Assembly (NCBI GenBank): GCA_965662175.1
Contig: CBFIGT010000024.1
Span: 1 to 25,586, forward strand
Direction: 5' to 3'
From: Arcobacter sp.
Lineage (GTDB): Bacteria; Campylobacterota; Campylobacteria; Campylobacterales; Arcobacteraceae
Length of the DNA stretch: 25,586 nucleotides
The translations under genes were made by a program, and so were the position numbers. Shown piece by piece: positions 5,942 through 21,624 of the stretch (position 1 is its first letter; each line of letters begins with the position of its first letter). A model generated the notes under the pieces. That model ran no database searches and was not told the origin of the DNA. It was given only the letters and a program-made list of their open reading frames with translations.

Positions 5942-7008
5942 TGAAAACATATAATATATCAGTAATCAAAGGTGATGGAATTGGTCCTGAGATAGTAGAT
6001 GAAGCAATAAAAGTATTAGATGCTGTATCTTATAACTGTGGATTTAACTTAGAGTATAAAGAGTACTTAATGGGTGGAATTGCTATTGATGTTACAGGTA
6101 AACCACTTCCTGAAGAGACAGTAACAGGAGTTTTAAACTCAGATGCATGTTTGTTTGGAGCAATTGGTGGAGAAAAATGGGATACATTACCAAGAGAGCT
6201 TAGACCTGAAACTGGACTTTTAAACTTTAGAGAAGCTATGGGTGTTTATGCAAACTTAAGACCTGCAATTATTTATGATGAACTTGTAAATGCATCAACA
6301 CTTAAACCTGAAGTTATTGAGGGTGTTGATATTATGGTTGTAAGAGAGTTAATTGGTGGAATTTATTTTGGGAAACCAAGAGCAAATGATGGATTTAAAG
6401 CTTATAACACAATGGTATATACAAAACCTGAAATTGAAAGAATTGGTAAAACAGCATTTGAATTAGCTATGAAAAGAGATAAAAGAGTTTGTTCAGTTGA
6501 TAAAGCAAATGTTTTAGAAGTATCTCAATTATGGAGAGATACTATGGAAGAGATTTCAAAAGATTATCCAGAAGTTCAACTTTCTCATATGTATGTAGAT
6601 AATGCAGCAATGCAACTTGTTAGAAATCCAAAACAGTTTGATGTAATAGTTACTGGAAATATTTTTGGAGATATTTTATCTGATACTGCTTCAATGGTTG
6701 TGGGTTCTATTGGATTATTACCAAGTGCCTCAACAGGAGATAAAACAGCAATTTATGAGCCAATTCATGGTTCAGCTCCTGATATTGCAGGTCAAGGAAT
6801 AGCAAATCCAATAGCAACAATAGAGAGTGCTGCTATGATGCTTAGATACTCACTAGGTGAAGATAAAGCTGCTGATATGATTGAAAATGCAATTAAAAAA
6901 GCACTTAAAGATGGTTATAGAACAAAAGACTTAGCTTCATTTGATGCTAAGGAGGTTGTTACAACTGCTGAAATGGGTGATATAATCGCTAATAACTTAT
7001 CAAAATAG
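5941..7008 (+). CDS. leuB: 3-isopropylmalate dehydrogenase
   Basis: [47 protein letters not shown]. Confidence 0.97.
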
Positions 7009-7034
7009 TGAAAATAGCTTAGGCTATTTTTACT
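7007..7034 (+). terminator. Probable intrinsic terminator after leuB
   Basis: AGTGAAAATAGC-TTAG-GCTATTTTTACT hairpin followed by T-rich sequence. Confidence 0.65.
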
Positions 7035-7138
7035 ACTTTTCTTCTAGAATTCTATTTTAAATTAAATAATTACAAATAAATTATTTTCTCTTTATTAATT
7101 TAATGTTAATATGTTCCATTAAATTTTTTGAGGAAAAT

Positions 7139-8068
7139 ATGGAAAATAAAAAATATAGATTAATTACAAGAAGTGATATGGATGGTTTAGTTTGTGGAAC
7201 TTTACTCTCCTATCTTGACTTAATCGATGATATTCTATTTGTACATCCAAAAGATATGCAAGATGGTTTAATTGAGGTTAATAAAAAGGATATCACTACA
7301 AACCTTCCTTATGTAGATGGAGTATATCTAGCCTTTGACCATCATTTTAGTGAAACCTTACGAAATGAAAAAAAAGAGAATCATATAATAGATGCCCAAG
7401 CCCCAAGTGCAGCTCAAGTTGTATATGATTATTATGGTGGTGATAATAAATTTCCTATGAGATTTAAATATATGATGGATGGAGCAAATAAAGCTGATAG
7501 TGCTAATTTTTCTCAAGATGATATTTTAAATCCACGTGCTTGGGACTTATTGAGTTTTATTATGGATTCAAGAACAGGCCTTGGACGATTTAAAGATTTT
7601 GATGTTTCAAATAAACAGTTAATGAAAAACTTGATTCAATACTGTGCTCAGTTTAATATAGATGAAATTTTAGAAATAAATGAAGTTAAACAGAGGGTTG
7701 ATTTATATTTTAAGTATGAAAAAGAGTTTAATGAGCAGTTAAAGCGTTGTACTAAAATATATAATAATGTAGCTGTAATAGATTATAAAGATGAATCAAT
7801 TATTTATCCTGGAAATAGATTTTTAGTTTATGCAATGTTTCCAAAGATTAGTGTATCTATTCATATAAGTTATACATATGATAGGGATAAAGTAGTATAT
7901 TCAACAGGAAAATCAATTATTAATAAGACATCAAAAACTAATATTGGTGAACTAATGCTTAAATATGGTGGTGGTGGCCATAAGGCAGCAGGTGGTTGCC
8001 AAATAGTTTTATCTGAGGCAAGTAGAGTTTTAGATGAGATTATAAAAAAACTAAATCAAGATGATTGA
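7139..8068 (+). CDS. DHH/DHHA1-family phosphoesterase (nanoRNase/exopolyphosphatase-like)
   Basis: SDMDGLVC, FDHH and GGGHKAAGG motifs. ATG at 7139 follows GAGGA and is preferred over 7103. Confidence 0.85.
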   Translation: MENKKYRLITRSDMDGLVCGTLLSYLDLIDDILFVHPKDMQDGLIEVNKKDITTNLPYVDGVYLAFDHHFSETLRNEKKENHIIDAQAPSAAQVVYDYYGGDNKFPMRFKYMMDGANKADSANFSQDDILNPRAWDLLSFIMDSRTGLGRFKDFDVSNKQLMKNLIQYCAQFNIDEILEINEVKQRVDLYFKYEKEFNEQLKRCTKIYNNVAVIDYKDESIIYPGNRFLVYAMFPKISVSIHISYTYDRDKVVYSTGKSIINKTSKTNIGELMLKYGGGGHKAAGGCQIVLSEASRVLDEIIKKLNQDD

Positions 8069-8430
8069 TTTAGTTTTTCAGTTATTAGTTTAAAGAAATT
8101 TTCAAATGAAGGTAAATCTAATTTACTTTCCCTTTGTTTTTTACCCCACATTGGTTCAGGAAAATATGAATCCTCTTTAAATCTAGCCATAATATGAAAA
8201 TGTACATGGGGAACATAGTTTCCAAAAGATGCTATATTTATCTTTTCAGGTTTAAAATAACTTAACATCTCTTTTTCAATAATGTCTAAACTATTCCAAA
8301 TATTCTCTTTAGTTTTTAAATCACACTCACTAAACTCTTTTAGTGGCTTTTGGGTAAAAATCTTTAACCAAGGAATTTCACTCTTTTCAATTTCAACTTT
8401 TATTAAATCATTTTCATATATAATACTCAA
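8056..8430 (-). CDS. HIT-family hydrolase
   Basis: KINIASFGNYVPHVHFHI histidine triad; TTG start after AAGGA. Confidence 0.9.
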   Translation of the reverse strand: MSIIYENDLIKVEIEKSEIPWLKIFTQKPLKEFSECDLKTKENIWNSLDIIEKEMLSYFKPEKINIASFGNYVPHVHFHIMARFKEDSYFPEPMWGKKQRESKLDLPSFENFFKLITEKLNQSS

Positions 8431-8515
8431 CTTATATCCTTTTTATTAAAATCTAATTCTACAATTTATTTCATTAAAAATTATTATCTACAAAGAGTAT
8501 ACTCTTTCAACATAC

Positions 8516-8538
8516 TTTAAGCTAAAATTAAATATAAT
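8516..8538 (+). promoter_or_regulatory. Putative sigma70 promoter of the rpmJ-rplQ operon
   Basis: TATAAT at 8533-8538 with an upstream TTTAAG at 8516-8521, a Campylobacterota-style AT-periodic promoter. Confidence 0.6.
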
Positions 8539-8542
8539 CACA

Positions 8543-8770
8543 ATCCATTTTTCAACCATTAAAGAAGTTTTTATAAAATATTTGTGTTTTATAAAGAGTT
8601 GGGCAGAACAAGAAAAAAGCAAATAAATCTTACTCAAAGTGTCGTAGGGTGGTTTTGACTTGGCTCCGCCGATTTTTTATTGCAAAGCAATAATAAAAAT
8701 CGGGGCGAACTACAAAAAAGCAAAGCAGTTTGCTTTTTTCAAATGTAGTTCTTCCCTGTTGAAAGTGGAT
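8543..8770 (+). ncRNA. Structured 5' leader upstream of rpmJ (candidate cis-regulatory RNA)
   Basis: Closing helix 8543-8556 with 8758-8770; internal hairpins at 8570-8595, 8667-8707 and 8707-8751. Confidence 0.6.
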
Positions 8771-8793
8771 AAAAAACACAAAGGAAAGCAACT

Positions 8794-8907
8794 ATGAAAG
8801 TTAGAGCTTCAGTAAAAAAGATGTGTGACAAATGTAAAATTGTCAAAAGAAGAGGAATCGTAAGAGTAATTTGCGAAACTAAAAAACACAAACAAAGACA
8901 AGGATAA
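8794..8907 (+). CDS. rpmJ: 50S ribosomal protein L36 (zinc-ribbon type)
   Basis: Not in the ORF track. Manual translation [44 protein letters not shown] at 8781-8785. Confidence 0.98.
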
Positions 8908-8909
8908 TC

Positions 8910-9272
8910 ATGGCTAGAATTGCAGGTGTTGATTTACCAAACAAAAAAAGAATGGAATACGCTTTAACGTATATCTTTGGAATTGGGTTATATAACTCAA
9001 GATTAATTCTTGATGCAACAGGTATCTCATATGACAAAAGAGCTCATGAATTAACAGAAGATGAAGCAGCAACAATTAGACAAGAGTTACAAAAAAACTA
9101 TGTTGTTGAGGGTGATTTAAGAAAAAAAGTTGCTATGGATATTAAAGCGCTTATGGATTTAGGTTCATATAGAGGATTAAGACATAGAAAAGGTTTACCA
9201 TGTAGAGGGCAAAAGACTAAGACTAATGCTCGAACTAGAAAAGGTAAAAAAAGAACTGTTGGTGCAGCGTAA
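8910..9272 (+). CDS. rpsM: 30S ribosomal protein S13
   Basis: [36 protein letters not shown]. Confidence 0.99.
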
Positions 9273-13221: not shown

Positions 13222-14679
<1,458 letters not shown>

Positions 14680-14687
14680 TATTGAGT

Positions 14688-14718
14688 AAAAAAGAGGTTT
14701 ATAACAGCCTCTTTTTTT
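14688..14718 (+). terminator. Intrinsic (possibly bidirectional) terminator after guaB
   Basis: AAAAAAGAGGTT...AGCCTCTTTTTTT hairpin with flanking A and T tracts. Confidence 0.85.
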
Positions 14719-14823
14719 AAATTTCTATGTTTCTCATAAAATCTTTTCACTCATTTACTTTTTGTAAACTTCTTTTAAAAATTTTATTTATGCTTTAAAC
14801 TTTATAAAATATAAACTAATATA

Positions 14824-14950
14824 AACCTCTTTCTTTTCCATAGTATTAGGATGTCTTTTATAATGAAATAAAATATTTTATTTAACCATAATATTTTCTA
14901 AAATATAAAAATGTAATTTTAAAGTTAAATTTTTTACCTTTAACAATATT
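14824..14950 (-). pseudogene. intI: Eroded integron-integrase N-terminal remnant
   Basis: Minus strand 14886-14824 reads VK*NILFHYKRHPNTMEKKEV, resembling the IntI N-terminal pattern W-x-K-x-Y-I-x-F-H-x-K-R-H-P-x-x-M-G-x-x-E-V/I. It is oriented divergently from the attC array, as intI usually is. Confidence 0.65.
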
Positions 14951-15055
14951 ATGTATAAAAAAGTCTAAATATCAACATAAAATAAACTTTTTAATAAATA
15001 TATAATAATAAGTTTATTTAAATACTTTGTTTATATAATATATATTCAATTAATT

Positions 15056-15062
15056 GTTATAT
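15056..15062 (+). other. Candidate attI (or relic attC) recombination core GTTATAT starting cassette 1
   Basis: GTT core 47 bp upstream of the first cassette ATG, between the intI remnant and the array. The region is very AT-rich, so a chance match is possible. Confidence 0.4.
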
Positions 15063-15102
15063 ATAAATTTACAGAGTAAAAATATAAAAGTAAGGAGTTC
15101 GT

Positions 15103-15619
15103 ATGAGCAAAAAAATAACATTAGTACTTGGACTAATTTTAACATTGTTAGCATCACCAATTTATGCTGATTGGAGTACATCTACAGATAAAAATGAAAT
15201 GACTGGTGAAAAATCAACATATGCCAGTTCTTCTTTAGTAAGTTCAACTAAAAACTATGGATTTTCCATACAGTGATACAGTAGCTTGGATTGGGGTAGG
15301 TTTTAAAAACAATAGAGAATGGATATATATAGGTTTTAGTGTATCACCAAACTTAAATGATACAAGAACAGAAGATTGGTATAATGTAATAAAAACAAAA
15401 ATAAAAATAAATGATAAAATTAATGATGTAACATTAACTCAAGATTGGGGTGATAAATTTTTAAGTTTTCTTTATGGAGAACAAACAATTAAAGATATAG
15501 AATCAGGTGATAAATTATTAATTACATTAAATTGGCATGGGAATGGCACAGTATATTTTAATTTTGATTTAAAAGGTTCTTCAAAAGCATTAAAAATAAT
15601 GAGAAAAGAATGTAAATAA
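15103..15619 (+). pseudogene. Frameshifted exported hypothetical protein (cassette 1)
   Basis: AAGGAG SD and ATG at 15103 give signal peptide MSKKITLVLGLILTLLASPIYA then DWSTSTDKNEMTG. Removing one A from the A5 run at 15250-15254 joins it to ORF 15257..15619 (…SSTKTMDFPY…), giving 171 aa. Confidence 0.8.
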
Positions 15620-15626
15620 AATTCTT

Positions 15627-15695
15627 ACATAAGAAATCATTTGAGAAAAATAATTGACCCTGCGGCTCAAATATTTCTCAATTCAAACGTTATAT
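15627..15695 (+). repeat. attC-like site, damaged R'' box
   Basis: ACATAAG...TTGAGAAAAATAATTGA-CCCTGCGGC-TCAAATATTTCTCAA...GTTATAT: an imperfect hairpin just after a stop codon, with the conserved AAC reading AAG. Confidence 0.7.
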
Positions 15696-15800
15696 ATAAA
15701 AGGACATTATTATATTAATAAAAGCAAAGAGAGATTATAGTAAAATCATCAGCAAGTATTAGAGTACATGAAAAAAGAAAGTTTTTATGAATGAAAAATC

Positions 15801-16223
15801 ATGATGAAAAAAAATTCTAAAATATTATTTGAAGCTAATAGAAATCATACTAGTGTATATTTGGCAGGATATGTATTAGAAGGGTATGTAAAAATTTTAC
15901 TTATTGACAATGGAGCAACTACATATCAAGGTAACAGTTCCTCATCTTATGGTGGTCACATAAATAATTCAAACTTTATAAATAGATTAAATACTATAGA
16001 TCCTGTCATATTTAGTAATAGTATTTTGAATCAAACTAATATGAACTATCCTCAATATTTATTAAATGGGGATGGTGTAGTGAATTCAAAAGATGAATGG
16101 AATATAAATTATAGATACGAAATCCAAAGATGGACAGATAGAAATTTTGCACAAAACATTCAAAATGAAATAGAAAAGATAGAAATAGCATTAACCAACT
16201 TAAGAATAGATGGAGTCGTATAA
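15801..16223 (+). CDS. HEPN-domain protein (possibly 5'-truncated)
   Basis: VYLAGYVLEGYVK helix, GGHI and C-terminal WNINYRY resemble the HEPN pattern AGY-x-x-E-x-x-L/V-K...H...W-x4-RY; TAATG overlap with the next gene. Confidence 0.7.
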   Translation: MMKKNSKILFEANRNHTSVYLAGYVLEGYVKILLIDNGATTYQGNSSSSYGGHINNSNFINRLNTIDPVIFSNSILNQTNMNYPQYLLNGDGVVNSKDEWNINYRYEIQRWTDRNFAQNIQNEIEKIEIALTNLRIDGVV

Positions 16224-18784
16224 TGATAGTTACACAACAACTAGAAAAAATTAAAAATATTATTGAACAATATAAAAATGTTGAATTTAGAATTATTAAT
16301 AATACATTAGGTAAAAACTTAATTCTTTTAAGTGAAGAAAATGAAAATTTATTAAAAGAACTAGATGAATATAAAAAATATATTCAAGAAGTAATTTTAG
16401 AACCAAATGAAGATGAAAATAATCCTATTATCAAAGAAATAAAAAATATTTGTGAAAAAAATAGTGTTATTCATAGAAATATTAGTTACATTAATTGGTC
16501 TAATAGAAAAATAAAAGTAGAAAAACAAAAAAAAGTTATTGCAGGATATTCATTTAAGGGAGGAATGGGTAGAAGTACAACATTAGCCTATCTATCATAC
16601 TTCTACTATCTTTTAGGTAAAAAAATTGTTGTTTTAGATTGTGACTTTGAAGCACCTGGTATTGCAAGTATCTTTTTTGATAAAGATAAAAGAGAACAAA
16701 AAGCTGGAATTTTAGATTATATAGTTGACTTAAATATAGATGAAAATCCAAAATTAGATAACTATTTTTTACAAAGTAAAGTAAGTGATAACTCTGGAAA
16801 TCTATTTGTTTTTCCATCTGGAATTGATTTTGATACAAAAAACTATATTAATAAAATATCAAAAATTGATTTTAACAGTAGTGGATATACAGATAGTTTT
16901 AATAAGTTATTACAAAAAATAGATGAATTTTTAAAACCTGATTTGATTTTTGTAGATTTACGAGCTGGAATTAATGAGTCTAATGGATTAATTTTAAAGC
17001 AAATATCTAATACTAACTTACTATTTTTTAATAGTGAAGAGCAAAATGAAGATGGATTAAAAGTTATTTCTACTCTATTTGATAATTTTCATACCAATTA
17101 TATAATGAATAGTACAATTAGATTTTCAAATCAAGAACTTAGGAAAATAAAAGAAAAACAGTTAAATGAGTTTTTAAATAGTGAATTTAAATTTAAAAAA
17201 GATAATATCATATCAATTCCATATAATGCATTTATGCTTGAGAATAATGATACTGAAGAATATGAAAAATTTATTATTAAAGAATACAAAGCTTATAAAA
17301 CATCAAGTCCAACATACTTATATCCACTAATTACTAAAATAGATAAAATATACTTTAATGATATAGTTGTAAAAATAAGAGATAATGAATTAATTGATAA
17401 AAGTAGTTTAAAAGATATATTGGAAAAATTAAAAAATGTATTTTCATCTCTAACAGGGACGGAACAGTTTAAAGGAGATGAAGACTTAAAATATTTTTAT
17501 CTTAAAGACGATATTTCAAAAATTGTAAATGAACAAATATTTTTAATATTAGGTGCTAAAGGTAGTGGTAAATCTACCTTATTTGAAGTTTTCACCAAGC
17601 ATCATAAAGATATATTAAGTAGATTAAATATTGGTAACAACAAATATATTGCTGGATTTTCAAAAAATATTATGAGGGAAATTTCAAAGGATTACATATC
17701 ATACATATTTAATAAAGCAAATAAAAATAGCGATGATATAGAGCGATTTTGGAAATGCTTAACACTTTTTAAAATAGAAAAAAATATAAGTAGTCAAGAG
17801 TTGTTTTTTACAAATATTGAAGAAATAAGTGAGAAATTCATTGACTTGAGAATTGGACTAGAAGTAGATAAGCGATTAAAAAATATAAATATAGAACTGC
17901 TACAAAAAGATGAAGTTATAACACTAGTTTATGATGAATTAGATATTGGCTTTACACAAGAATCAACAAAAACCTTTATAACGACACTTGTATCTTTTTG
18001 GCAAGATAATATATATAAATATAGTCAAATTAGGTCAAAGATACTATTAAGAAATGATATTTTTGATACTTTAAATATTGAAAATAAAACACATTTAGAA
18101 CTTAATATGTATGAGTTAAAATGGAATGAAAAAGAGATATTGTCACTTATATTGAAAATTTTTATTTCAGAACTTTCTGATGAAGAACTTGAAAAAATTA
18201 ATCTTTTATTCATTATTAAGAATAGAAAGAATAATGAAGTCGTAGAAGATATGAGTAAAATACGAGAAGCAATATATTTAATATTTAATAAAAAAGCTCC
18301 TTATAGTTCAACAATGGATAAATGGTTACCTGCAAGACTAGAAGACTCAAAAGGTCTTATAACTCCTAGAACTATATATAAACTAATGTATGAGAGTATC
18401 AAAAACGAATTGAAATACGATACAGAAACAAAACGTAATGCATTATTAAATTCATTTGATAAAAATAAAGATGATTGGAAAGAGATTTTCAAGGAAGTTT
18501 CAAAACAGAAACTTGTTGAATACGATGCTGAGTATAAAGATTACAAAACTATATATAATAAAATTGTTAAAATAGGTCAAAGAAGCTTTACAAAAGATGA
18601 GTTTAAAGAACAATTTCCTAATAAAACAAATATTAAAACTATTGATGATAATTTGAAAAAATTACAAGAAAGTGGTTTTTTAGGTTATGATGAAAAGCAA
18701 AAAAAGTATCAAGTTGCATTTATTTATGTTTATTCTTTAGGACTAAAAATTAATAGAAGCAAAACAGGAAAAGGAGAAAAATAA
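16223..18784 (+). CDS. 853-aa double P-loop protein: ParA/MinD-like KGGxGR-variant ATPase fused to a second NTPase and a probable C-terminal winged helix
   Basis: SFKGGMGRST (16556-16579), LDCDFEAPG, VDLRAG; second Walker A GAKGSGKST (17552-17578), Walker B LVYDELD, KILLRNDIF, TPR; C-terminal LKKLQESGFL. Confidence 0.85.
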   Translation: MIVTQQLEKIKNIIEQYKNVEFRIINNTLGKNLILLSEENENLLKELDEYKKYIQEVILEPNEDENNPIIKEIKNICEKNSVIHRNISYINWSNRKIKVEKQKKVIAGYSFKGGMGRSTTLAYLSYFYYLLGKKIVVLDCDFEAPGIASIFFDKDKREQKAGILDYIVDLNIDENPKLDNYFLQSKVSDNSGNLFVFPSGIDFDTKNYINKISKIDFNSSGYTDSFNKLLQKIDEFLKPDLIFVDLRAGINESNGLILKQISNTNLLFFNSEEQNEDGLKVISTLFDNFHTNYIMNSTIRFSNQELRKIKEKQLNEFLNSEFKFKKDNIISIPYNAFMLENNDTEEYEKFIIKEYKAYKTSSPTYLYPLITKIDKIYFNDIVVKIRDNELIDKSSLKDILEKLKNVFSSLTGTEQFKGDEDLKYFYLKDDISKIVNEQIFLILGAKGSGKSTLFEVFTKHHKDILSRLNIGNNKYIAGFSKNIMREISKDYISYIFNKANKNSDDIERFWKCLTLFKIEKNISSQELFFTNIEEISEKFIDLRIGLEVDKRLKNINIELLQKDEVITLVYDELDIGFTQESTKTFITTLVSFWQDNIYKYSQIRSKILLRNDIFDTLNIENKTHLELNMYELKWNEKEILSLILKIFISELSDEELEKINLLFIIKNRKNNEVVEDMSKIREAIYLIFNKKAPYSSTMDKWLPARLEDSKGLITPRTIYKLMYESIKNELKYDTETKRNALLNSFDKNKDDWKEIFKEVSKQKLVEYDAEYKDYKTIYNKIVKIGQRSFTKDEFKEQFPNKTNIKTIDDNLKKLQESGFLGYDEKQKKYQVAFIYVYSLGLKINRSKTGKGEK

Positions 18785-18838
18785 TATAACAAAATTTAGC
18801 AACGAACACTTGGGCGTCGTTGTAGTAAACTGTTAGTA
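18784..18838 (+). repeat. attC site with canonical architecture (55 bp)
   Basis: R'' ATATAAC, 5-nt spacer, L'' TTA(G)CAAC with an extra G, short stem-loop, L' GTTGTAG, 6-nt spacer, R' GTTAGTA. R'' overlaps the stop codon. Confidence 0.85.
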
Positions 18839-18883
18839 TGTCAAAAACTAGTTGCTTGATTTATATATAAGTTAAATATTTTA

Positions 18884-18892
18884 TGCTAAAAT
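18884..18892 (+). promoter_or_regulatory. Putative extended -10 promoter internal to cassette 3
   Basis: TGCTAAAAT (TGn-TAAAAT) 24 nt before the ATG at 18917; AAGGGA SD. Confidence 0.45.
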
Positions 18893-18916
18893 AATATAAT
18901 TTTAGAAAGGGATAAT

Positions 18917-19639
18917 ATGGTTGTAAATGATTTTAAGATTATTATAAAAGCAAAGAAAGTCCCAGTTAATATTAATAATGAAATCATTAAGTATACACAA
19001 GATACTACAATCCAAAATAATCATTTACAATGTGAAGTTTTTTTCCAAAATACTCTAATTGCACAAGGTATTATCTTAGATTTTTACAAAGAGTTTGAGA
19101 TACTTCAAGACTTTAATCAAAATCCTTTTACCCATATTTTAACTTTTGAATATAACGGTCGAGAATATCAAAAATACACATATTTTGGGAAAAAGTTGTA
19201 TGAGATGAAATATTTAAAAAGTCCACCATTACAACAAGTAACAAGGGAATCTTATATTGATGAAATAATTTCTTACTTTCATGGATATATTAAATATTTA
19301 AAAGAAAACTATTCTAATTTAAATATGACATTTATACCTTCAAGTTCGCAAATGCCTGATGATATTGCGAATAAACTATCAGTGATAAATTCTATACCGT
19401 TAAACACTATTATTTTCAAACACAGTTCAATCGCAAGTAAAGCCATAACAAACTTATCAACACAACAATTTAATAAATATACTATAGATTTAAGCCAATC
19501 AAATATTAATGATACTTTTATCGTTATTGATGATGTAATGGGTACGACAGCCTCAATATGTGAAACCATGTATAAGCTATATGATTTTAATAAAAAAGTG
19601 AACTTTTTCTTTATCCCTGTGAAGGATGTAAAAAGATGA
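18917..19639 (+). CDS. Type I phosphoribosyltransferase-domain protein (ComF-like C-terminus, unknown N-terminal domain)
   Basis: PRPP-binding loop FIVIDDVMGTTASI and upstream FIPSS; ATGA overlap with the next gene. Confidence 0.75.
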   Translation: MVVNDFKIIIKAKKVPVNINNEIIKYTQDTTIQNNHLQCEVFFQNTLIAQGIILDFYKEFEILQDFNQNPFTHILTFEYNGREYQKYTYFGKKLYEMKYLKSPPLQQVTRESYIDEIISYFHGYIKYLKENYSNLNMTFIPSSSQMPDDIANKLSVINSIPLNTIIFKHSSIASKAITNLSTQQFNKYTIDLSQSNINDTFIVIDDVMGTTASICETMYKLYDFNKKVNFFFIPVKDVKR

Positions 19640-20391
19640 AAAATAAAGTTTTTATTAGCGGTTCAATATCATTTAAAAAACTACCTCAAGAGGTTATAAA
19701 TAGTATTAATAAAATCATAAGTCAAAACTTTGAAATATTGGTTGGCGATGCTAGTGGTATTGATACATTAGTTCAAGAGTATTGTTTATCTTTAAACTAT
19801 TTTAATGTAACTGTTTATTCAATTTCTATAGTTCCAAGATATAAAGCAAGTGAAAATTTTAAGACAAAATATATTGAAGTTTCAAATAGTATTAAAAAAG
19901 AGAGAGAAAGACAACAAGAAAAAGATAAATCTATGACTATAGATAGTGAATTTACTTTTGCTATATGGGATGGTAAAAGTAAAGGGACTTATAACAATAT
20001 ACTTCGGGGCTTAGAGAATAATAAAAAAATAAAAGTTTATTTATCTAAAAAAGATTTATTTCTTGAGCAAAACAAAATTACAAAAGATGAAATAGATTTT
20101 ATTTATCGAGAAGATAACGGTTATACAGCTTCTGAAGTAGTACAACACTTAAAAGATGAAGCGAAAGATTTTTTTCAAAAAACACAAGATTTGAATAAAT
20201 ATCTATTGCATGAACTAGTAATAGAAAAAGAGGATAAAACATATAAGCCAACAAGCAAGTATAAAGATTTATTTATTATTGATAAATACCATGGAAAAAT
20301 CAAAGGTATTAAGTTTAAAAATGAATTTATATCTTGGATTGAAAAGCATATTAAAGAAGAGAGAAAACCACAACAAGCTAGTTTATTTTAG
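19636..20391 (+). CDS. SLOG-superfamily (DprA/YspA-like fold) protein with a probable C-terminal DNA-binding domain
   Basis: VFISGS, LVGDASGIDTLVQEY, KDKSM, AIWDGKSKGTYNNI are SLOG-fold motifs; the C-terminal YTASEV...DLNKYL...YKPT looks winged-helix/antirepressor-like. Confidence 0.7.
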   Translation: MKNKVFISGSISFKKLPQEVINSINKIISQNFEILVGDASGIDTLVQEYCLSLNYFNVTVYSISIVPRYKASENFKTKYIEVSNSIKKERERQQEKDKSMTIDSEFTFAIWDGKSKGTYNNILRGLENNKKIKVYLSKKDLFLEQNKITKDEIDFIYREDNGYTASEVVQHLKDEAKDFFQKTQDLNKYLLHELVIEKEDKTYKPTSKYKDLFIIDKYHGKIKGIKFKNEFISWIEKHIKEERKPQQASLF

Positions 20392-20394
20392 TTT

Positions 20395-20496
20395 TTATAA
20401 TAGGAAGAGTAATGAATCCTAGCACTGAATAGATAAATCTATCAGTGAAGTTAAAATTTAGGGGCAGAATACTTAATTATATTCTAATAGTTAGGT
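20395..20496 (+). repeat. Doubtful degenerate attC-like hairpin closing cassette 3
   Basis: Ends in GTTAGGT (GTTRRRY, 20490-20496). TAGGAAGAGTAAT pairs imperfectly with ATTATATTCTA and there is an inner CACTGA/TCAGTG stem, but no AAC box. Confidence 0.3.
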
Positions 20497-20521
20497 AAAT
20501 TCGTAATTTGAGAACGAATAT

Positions 20522-20857
20522 CTAAAATATAATACTCTTTGTAATTCCCAATACTTGGTTCAAAATTTCATTATCAACTTTTTCTACAAATTTAACTTTT
20601 CTAGCATTGTAATCTATTGATTTAATTTGTTCTGTCATGATAAAACCTGTAAGTTTTTCGCTTTCAATTTTTACATGAAAAGGGAAGTTTCTATCTGTAT
20701 TTGTTATTGGACAAGCTATTGCTAGACCTAAGGCTTTATTAAATGCTTCATTGCTTATTATTAGTGCTGGTCTTCGTCCTTTTTGCTCATCTCCTGATGA
20801 TGGGTCGAATGTAAGTATTACTAAATCTCCTTTTTTAGGAATATAATTACCTACCAT
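20522..20857 (-). CDS. mazF: MazF/PemK-family endoribonuclease toxin
   Basis: GDLVILTFDPSSGDEQKGRRPALIIS, ACPIT, EQIKSID. Confidence 0.93.
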   Translation of the reverse strand: MVGNYIPKKGDLVILTFDPSSGDEQKGRRPALIISNEAFNKALGLAIACPITNTDRNFPFHVKIESEKLTGFIMTEQIKSIDYNARKVKFVEKVDNEILNQVLGITKSIIF

Positions 20858-21096
20858 TCTTCTTTACCTATTTTTTCATCGAATTCCTCATTTGCTTTAT
20901 AATCTTTTGGTATTTTTGATAATAATTCATTTAAATCATATTTTGGAAGTTCTTTTTTTATAGGTTCTAAAATAGCTTTTCCATCTTTTATACTAATATT
21001 GACACTATCACCAACATTTAAGTGTAAATCATCCATTAGATCTTTTGGTACTCTAATTCCATGTGAGTTTCCCCATTTTGATATTTTAGCAGTCAT
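20851..21096 (-). CDS. mazE: MazE/AbrB-family antitoxin
   Basis: KWGNSHGIRVPK, YDLNELL, C-terminal GKEEW; overlaps the toxin start; GAGGAG SD. Confidence 0.93.
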   Translation of the reverse strand: MTAKISKWGNSHGIRVPKDLMDDLHLNVGDSVNISIKDGKAILEPIKKELPKYDLNELLSKIPKDYKANEEFDEKIGKEEW

Positions 21097-21110
21097 TTTA
21101 ACTCCTCGTT

Positions 21111-21149
21111 GTATATCCGAAGTATATCTATAATTTAGATTATTGTCAA
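21111..21149 (-). promoter_or_regulatory. mazEF promoter with operator-like repeats
   Basis: TTGACA (21149-21144), 17-nt spacer, TATACT (21126-21121); GATATAC twice (21128-21122, 21117-21111) over the -10 and start site. Confidence 0.8.
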
Positions 21150-21294
21150 TTTATAAAGCTTTGTATAAAGAGTAAAATAAAATAGAGTGATAATTTATAA
21201 CAAATTGTAATACTTTTCCTTAGTTATTCTTTTTTTCTGTATACTTCATATAATTAAAACAGAGGTTATTACAATCGAAGATAAGGAAAAAACT

Positions 21295-21624
21295 GTGAAT
21301 GGAAATATTGAGGTTACATATAAAGTTGTTAATCAAAATGATTTAAACTTAGCTATTAGTCTAAATGAGCTTTTAAAAAATGAAAAAATTGTTAAACTAA
21401 TTAAGAGTGAATTTGCGAAAGGTTATCGTAATATTGATTTAAAAATTGATTCTGAATTAAGTGATAAATTTAAACTTGAAACTATAAAAGAGCTTTACTC
21501 TTTTACTATTTTAAAAGATGATTTTGCAGATATTATTAGCTTAGCTGAAGAGGATGCTAATAATAAAAAACTACTAAAGAAAGATTGTTTTATTGAACTT
21601 GTTGATATAAAAACTATAGAGTAA
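21295..21624 (+). CDS. Hypothetical protein
   Basis: 109-aa ORF, GTG start after AAGGA; no recognised motif. Confidence 0.7.
   Translation: MNGNIEVTYKVVNQNDLNLAISLNELLKNEKIVKLIKSEFAKGYRNIDLKIDSELSDKFKLETIKELYSFTILKDDFADIISLAEEDANNKKLLKKDCFIELVDIKTIE

Follow-up and report, generated by a model that had tools for sequence, protein, structure and literature searches.

A probable HINPO/PDC-M28 family member with an interrupted HEPN gene, carried as an integron cassette in Arcobacter sp.

Introduction

Which system is encoded by two overlapping genes that together fill a gene cassette of Arcobacter sp., and is it still complete in this copy? The cassette occupies positions 15690-18832 of contig CBFIGT010000024.1 (NCBI GenBank assembly GCA_965662175.1), of which the whole stretch analysed, positions 1 to 25,586 of the forward strand (25,586 nucleotides), is called the window here. 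In a preliminary description made from the letters alone, the pair was taken for an undescribed defence system without a named counterpart, consisting of a small HEPN-like protein and a long protein with two nucleotide-binding modules. This novelty does not hold, since the PDC-M28 profiles match both proteins and the published description of HINPO matches the architecture including the fusion. Judged from sequence, and with HINPO compared by its published description, the cassette is very probably a two-gene fused form of the HINPO/PDC-M28 family. It is a real and mobile element, likely defensive, that belongs to a family already catalogued twice and is probably a damaged copy. What is new here is the carriage in an integron cassette and the existence of relatives in which the ORC module is replaced by a 120-residue domain. 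Regarding function, the balance of evidence inclines us toward an HEPN RNase gated by the ATPases and likely directed against phages, the HEPN gene of this copy bearing a stop at codon 9.

Borders of the Cassette

The listed open reading frames (ORFs) of the pair, 15801-16223 (140 amino acids, aa) and 16223-18784 (853 aa), lie on the plus strand and share the overlap TAATG at 16221-16225, as noticed earlier. Recombination sites of the attC type were located at both ends by a covariance model, which was built without any window sequence from eight sites of G402, a genome of the same genus, and three of the homologous loci L019 and L020. Its E-values are rough, and the L019/L020 training sites stem from homologous cassettes. 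The best three of 13 matches in the window, at 15627-15695 (61.7 bits), 20407-20463 (29.4 bits) and 18784-18839 (23.1 bits, E 0.007), are all on the plus strand and directly 3' of a gene, and the window therefore holds three cassettes. The site at 15627-15695, the attC of the previous cassette, belongs to the family of the G402 repeats and has AAG instead of AAC in its first core box. The site at 18784-18839 is the attC of the HEPN/ATPase cassette, with intact AAC and GTT cores, and sites like it also follow the stop codon in L019 and L020. As the G/TT points fall at 15689/15690 and 18832/18833, the interval of the earlier description is reproduced exactly, and its claim of two coupled genes filling one cassette is confirmed: as in an integron cassette, the ORFs lie between an upstream recombination site and an attC of their own with R and L boxes.

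Other search routes were less productive. A direct-repeat search of the window revealed no attC family, an Rfam scan of 14600-21300 gave no match, and a pattern scan for attC was dropped in favor of the covariance model because it was unspecific and overlooked the downstream site. Homologous cassettes with other attC sites exist in L018, L019 and L020. In L019 attC sites are present on both sides and in L020 downstream (both being training sites and thus matched by construction), while L018 has a weak downstream score (20.4 bits, E 0.3) and an upstream G/TT junction after which the bases match the window from 15710 onward. Positions 15690-15709 are thus 20 additional bases that separate the attC crossover from the position where the homologous cassette of L018 starts. 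The model was also run on 30 other loci besides that of G402, and most homologues lie outside cassettes.

The Long Protein and its Relation to Named Systems

The gene of the long protein is preceded by a Shine-Dalgarno-like GGAG at 16212-16215 (plus strand), inside the 3' end of the HEPN gene. The structure model (pLDDT 81.8, pTM 0.55) falls into three parts, two of which bear out the two nucleotide-binding modules claimed before, by NCBIfam matches as well as conserved motifs. Residues 102-379 (16526-17359, plus strand) form a ParA/MinD-type ATPase with the Walker A motif SFKGGMGRS, DCDFEAPG and DLIFVD, which matches the KGGVGR-variant ATPase family NF047398 over its cut-off at residues 104-282 and aligns to MinD (4v02) with Z 19.9 and an rmsd of 3.4 over 228 residues. 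Residues 400-842 (17420-18748, plus strand) comprise an ATPase of the ORC/Cdc6-STAND type, including a lid and a winged-helix tail (GAKGSGKS, YDELD, R610, TPR), matching the Sll1717-family ATPase NF047389 over its cut-off at residues 422-835. The archaeal Cdc6/Orc1 and AAA+ structures 2qby, 2fna and 2qen align with this module along nearly their full length (Z 12.8-13.7, rmsd 5.4-6.6; for Cdc6/Orc1 2qby, residues 17-381, Z 12.8, rmsd 6.6, 326 aligned), and the top Foldseek match is Cdc6 1fnn (E 4.1e-6). Both results support the winged-helix tail, which had been called probable; it lines up with the C-terminal portion of the Cdc6/Orc1 structures. Among the 49 proteins that were aligned out of 82 search matches, all Walker and sensor residues are invariant, and the copy in the window departs from the consensus in merely three of 282 conserved columns, each time with Val for Ile.

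HINPO, a computationally predicted system, was described as an HEPN of the family PA-HEPN1, an inactive nucleotidyltransferase plus a ParA of the ConB2 type, and an ORC-CDC6/STAND ATPase, fused "in several cases" (Li, Burroughs, and Aravind, bioRxiv 10.64898/2026.10.19.760177). The sections covered give as ConB2 marks a Ser ahead of Walker A, an Arg in place of the second Lys and PG behind DxD. Assigned by this motif test, the ParA module is of the ConB2 type: S110-F-K-G-G-M-G-R117 and D139-C-D-F-E-A-P145-G146 carry these marks, and S, K, R, D, D, P and G are invariant in 49/49 proteins. Likewise, the HEPN gene (interrupted in this copy) lies directly upstream of the ParA, and the ORC-CDC6/STAND ATPase is fused to it. 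The cassette differs from the published account in several respects. The main text of that paper mentions neither "integron" nor "PDC", and the sections covered do not refer to forms in which a different C-terminal domain takes the place of ORC. Enrichment is reported there for multicellular bacteria, but most of the named close homologues found here belong to Campylobacterota. It may be that the supplements include this clade, its carriage in cassettes or the ORC-less forms.

The remaining part, residues 1-92 (16223-16498, plus strand), is modeled as helix-strand-strand-helix-strand-helix-strand and fits the inactive nucleotidyltransferase domain of HINPO in size, place and order of secondary structure. 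It has no catalytic Asp and no GS/DxD motif. Pfam showed no nucleotidyltransferase match among 14 N-terminal pieces, hhalign against 24 sequences of minimal nucleotidyltransferases (MNT) gave at most 1.1% probability, and neither a usable Atlas match nor NCBIfam support was obtained, with 0/176 candidates among shorter proteins. The earlier statement that an MNT partner is missing is thus right in that the cassette contains no separate MNT gene and no adjoining active MNT with GS and DxD motifs, but incomplete, because the long protein carries the N-terminal domain that Li et al., in the part covered, class as an inactive nucleotidyltransferase. This also sets the cassette apart from the HEPN-MNT pairs (HEPN-T, AF0298), which provide the closest solved structures of the small protein and share its alternative His site.

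The second catalogue entry is PDC-M28 of PADLOC-DB 2.0, whose profiles match in order, PDC-M28A with E 5.5e-6, M28B with 1.8e-35 and M28C with 1.2e-14, B and C in one protein. PDCs are predicted candidates, 145 in number, that lie within BREX, DISARM or type I restriction-modification (RM) loci (Payne et al., bioRxiv 10.1101/2024.01.29.577857, as far as seen), and homologues of the window pair are similarly found in RM loci and beside BREX. PADLOC holds three separate profiles whereas B and C are fused here, the matches being distant and of partial profile coverage, and a fused form might fail a three-gene PADLOC rule. The name PDC-M28 was found neither in the main text of Payne et al., as far as seen, nor in the literature search, and it is not included among the eight candidates tested in PMC12881386. 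In the defence literature searched, Sll1717, KGGVGR and PDC-M28A did not occur, and a search for an anti-phage system of HEPN plus ParA-like ATPase found no match. Two other combinations of ParA and HEPN are more distant. The dyad of the HEPN family MAE_18760 with ParA/Soj, where ParA was proposed to replace MNT as antitoxin, keeps the Rx4-6H motif and, in the part of the source covered, has no ORC/Cdc6 module described, while the HEPN of the window is HEPN-T/AF0298-like (Anantharaman et al., 2013, PMC3710099). ParA-HeH subtype 4 of Salmonella, cited by Li et al. in the text covered as ParA plus an HEPN tRNA nuclease with reported anti-phage activity, has a ParA of the ConB1 group partnered by an HeH gene, lacks ORC/Cdc6, and its HEPN belongs to the PHEPN1 family.

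The HEPN Protein and its Early Stop

For the small protein, one search gave 29 homologues besides itself and another 81 representatives. The window's own sequence had no Pfam or NCBIfam match, whereas 20 of 53 family members matched Pfam HEPN at E≤0.05 (best 1.6e-7); a PDB sequence search with the alignment returned two chance rows. In the structure model (pLDDT 84.5) no Foldseek match reached E≤0.001, seven of eight weak rows being HEPN-bearing entries, and the top VIA match was AF0298 (2hsb; Z 8.4, rmsd 3.5, 110 aligned), tied with other HEPNs and with a Z within the range of generic helical bundles. Taken together, the modeled fold is supported as HEPN, and this part of the earlier claim of a 140-aa HEPN-like protein stands; its length does not, as the gene originally had 151 codons with its start at 15768, and the 140-aa ORF is what is left of it.

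The classical RNase motif Rx4-6H was absent from the 53-member alignment; instead, an alternative His-type site is present, with Y20, E27, H53, R105 and Y106 invariant, all of them retained in the residual ORF at 15801-16223 (plus strand). For AF0298 and AbiV, a basic residue together with an earlier His was regarded as a possible alternative site (PMC3710099, part covered). Because the motif is missing and the activity of such sites was called merely possible in that source, the protein could also bind RNA or nucleotides and regulate the ATPases instead of acting as a nuclease. We hold this to be improbable, as E27, H53, R105 and Y106 are invariant in 53/53 proteins down to 22% identity, which is the pattern of a catalytic site. 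Compared to L018, the HEPN has 30 nonsynonymous and 32 synonymous codon differences and the ATPase 57 and 127, hence the HEPN evolves faster. Its conserved C-terminal DG(V/I) overlaps the Shine-Dalgarno-like GGAG/GGGG of the ATPase gene (16210-16218 in the window, and in homologues), so this conservation may be at the RNA level.

The full-length HEPN gene (15768-16223, plus strand) is broken by TGA at 15792-15794, its ninth codon; the eight closest homologues have 151-152 aa and start 11 codons upstream of 15801. The stop was likely made by a micro-inversion of the eight bases 15791-15798, which lie between 4-base inverted arms (15787-15802). Reading this segment in reverse was the best of 959 segments tested, with 32 additional matches over 11 homologues and the stop removed, and the inversion score against three close homologues was 7-8 there and at most 3 anywhere else in the gene. 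A phase-variable switch at this place was judged unlikely, given arms of just four bases and no second state in 11 homologues. A restart at 15801 or 15804 would presumably cost about three turns of the first helix. Since P0011, P0025 and P0030 (3/28 aligned homologues) are likewise annotated from a later Met, a working short form is conceivable, and we give it a small chance. An assembly error, with no read piece among those listed spanning the stop, appears somewhat less likely still. The HEPN gene of this copy is therefore best regarded, with fair confidence, as broken, and its effector is probably lost or weakened.

Linkage, Genomic Context and ORC-less Variants

Scans gave 31 loci, 21 close (at least 43% identity) and 10 distant, L010 and L031 being one place and L029 and L033 near-identical. 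The HEPN gene lies directly upstream of the ATPase gene in 20 of the 21 close loci, the stretch in L009 being masked by N, so the linkage of the two genes is borne out in homologues. Among the distant loci, an HEPN was recognized by profile in L035 and L036 (94.9%) and by motif inspection in L012, L034 and L037; L016 is doubtful (5.6% for the upstream ORF against the HEPN profile), L013 starts inside the ATPase, and the upstream ORFs of L014, L015 and L017 were left out of the profile comparison. In L012 (Desulfobacterales; 6460-8990) a second HEPN-like gene, with RxxxxH by inspection, precedes the HEPN, and no ORC gene was seen directly after the 441-aa ParA protein.

The suspected defence context is supported by RM, BREX and abortive-infection (Abi) neighbours in individual loci. 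In L026 and L030 the pair lies within a type III RM system, with mod on one side and res on the other (a mod remnant is present in L025). In L027 it separates the methyltransferase (MTase) from the restriction endonuclease (REase) of a type II RM system (with an MTase remnant in L028), and in L010 it precedes pglZ and brxL of BREX. Its neighbours are AbiL-like genes in L035, and a JetD-like gene as well as an MNT-HEPN gene in L037. Few genomes carry the close clade, 2/401 of the phylum sample including its own; the four closest named homologues come from Sulfurovum, Campylobacteraceae, Campylobacterales and an unnamed bacterium. Fused ParA-ATPase proteins of such size are widespread, with Atlas clusters of 50-671 members for the distant homologue L036, several of them mostly cyanobacterial.

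Integron arrays commonly hold toxin-antitoxin (TA) cassettes, and loss of the toxin before its partner is the usual order of decay. The two-gene coupled layout would accordingly also suit an addiction module that stabilizes a cassette array or RM island without sensing infection, in agreement with the proposal of ParA as antitoxin (PMC3710099, part covered). This is hardly probable, as the partner has 853 aa, a winged helix and two ATPase sites that are both fully conserved, far beyond the needs of an antitoxin, and as the toxin gene comes first and homologues are embedded in RM loci.

Among 16 shorter homologues of the long protein, nine (P0096-P0101, P0104, P0105, P0107) keep the N-terminal and ParA parts and end in a conserved 120-residue domain instead of the ORC module, four (P0095, P0102, P0106, P0109) resemble internal deletions, and P0093, P0103 and P0108 are unclassed. 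The loci L027-L029 show the same replacement, with the HEPN retained. Searches of Pfam, NCBIfam and PADLOC gave no match for the domain, which may have been exchanged as a sensor or acquired incidentally when the pair inserted into a type II RM locus. In 2/401 genomes it stands alone between type II MTase and REase, as a 123-aa protein (L083:1492-1863, L084:1486-1863), and it is fused to ParA at L027:1832-2182. The 123-aa protein is itself a candidate for defence.

Proposed Mode of Action

In the mechanism that we favour, the ORC/Cdc6 module with its winged helix would sense invader DNA, and ATP-driven assembly of the ParA module would relay the signal. The N-terminal domain, which is likely the catalytically inactive remnant of the nucleotidyltransferase in a former HEPN-MNT pair, would dock the HEPN dimer and release it or switch it on, whereupon the HEPN would cut RNA by its alternative E27/H53/R105 site and cause growth arrest and dormancy upon infection. 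Several points weigh against this reading. The HEPN has no canonical Rx4-6H and scores modestly in structure comparisons, the N-terminal domain is without sequence or profile match to nucleotidyltransferases, and the PDC-M28A match is weak, with 5/13 given partner HEPN ORFs matching that profile. Moreover, many homologous loci have just housekeeping neighbours (e.g., L008, L021, L023, L024), and no phage-protection or toxicity data for HINPO or PDC-M28 were found in the literature.

Furthermore, the authors of HINPO favour ParA polymers as main effector in the part covered (Li et al., bioRxiv 10.64898/2026.10.19.760177). In the model they put forward, the ORC/Cdc6 module finds invader DNA, ParA multimers coat or trap it and thus block the invader, the N-terminal domain senses nucleotides and the HEPN is a back-up, so the copy in the window could keep some activity without its HEPN. 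The state of the ATPase gene, intact, with its own Shine-Dalgarno-like site and few deviant columns, agrees with this; such intactness may just reflect a recent lesion of the HEPN. The HEPN is retained in the close loci and stays together with the N-terminal and ParA parts even where ORC is lost, which argues that it is more than a back-up. We consider ParA as main effector unlikely, and the ATPase-gated HEPN RNase remains our preferred reading. As a tentative generalization, HINPO may be an HEPN-MNT pair rebuilt as an alarm, in which the dead MNT docks the HEPN on a ParA switch with an exchangeable C-terminal sensor (ORC/Cdc6, or the 120-residue domain derived from type II RM), mobile as cassette and as insert of RM loci.

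Array Context and Neighbouring Genes

The cassettes follow guaB in an A+T-rich stretch (GC 0.20-0.25 versus about 0.30 upstream). No intI was found among the window ORFs between guaB and the first cassette, as would adjoin the array in a complete integron. The intI of the same genome is on contig C130 (5283-6062), beside guaA, scores over the TIGR02249 cut-off and is truncated where the contig ends; C164 and C184 hold three more attC sites (C164:3438-3505, C184:1333-1388 and C184:2707-2775). Small contigs of this genome carry further cassettes, among them, by inspection, a pair of ATPase and HNH-like genes. At the orthologous site after guaB, the integrase-like ORF of G402 is intact and adjoins an array of eight attC repeats (L051:1702-10014), with varied unknown cassettes and then a TA-like pair, while two other genomes of the genus, among six read downstream of guaB, retain a piece matching the 3' end of the integrase. 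The window array shows decay in the first attC (AAG for AAC), the degenerate cores of the third and the frameshifted gene of the first cassette. This gene (15103-15619) has a signal-peptide-like start at 15103 and a frameshift near 15250, its second half being the listed 120-aa ORF without family match.

The next cassette (18917-20391, attC 20407-20463) comprises genes of a phosphoribosyltransferase (PRTase)-like (240 aa) and a DprA-like protein (251 aa) with weak PADLOC matches to ShosT (E 0.0013) and ShosA (E 0.01), likely a ShosTA-type toxin-antitoxin defence pair as judged from these profiles. Downstream, a mazEF (PemK/MazE) pair occupies 20522-21096 on the minus strand, at the same position in 4/6 genomes of the genus.

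Conclusion

The cassette offers a compact, naturally mobile two-gene version of a predicted immune family and brings together PDC-M28 and HINPO, which had been catalogued separately. The intact close homologues L018, L019, L020 and L026 are better test subjects than the interrupted copy, and the ORC-less relatives provide a natural control by which the sensing module can be told from the killing one.

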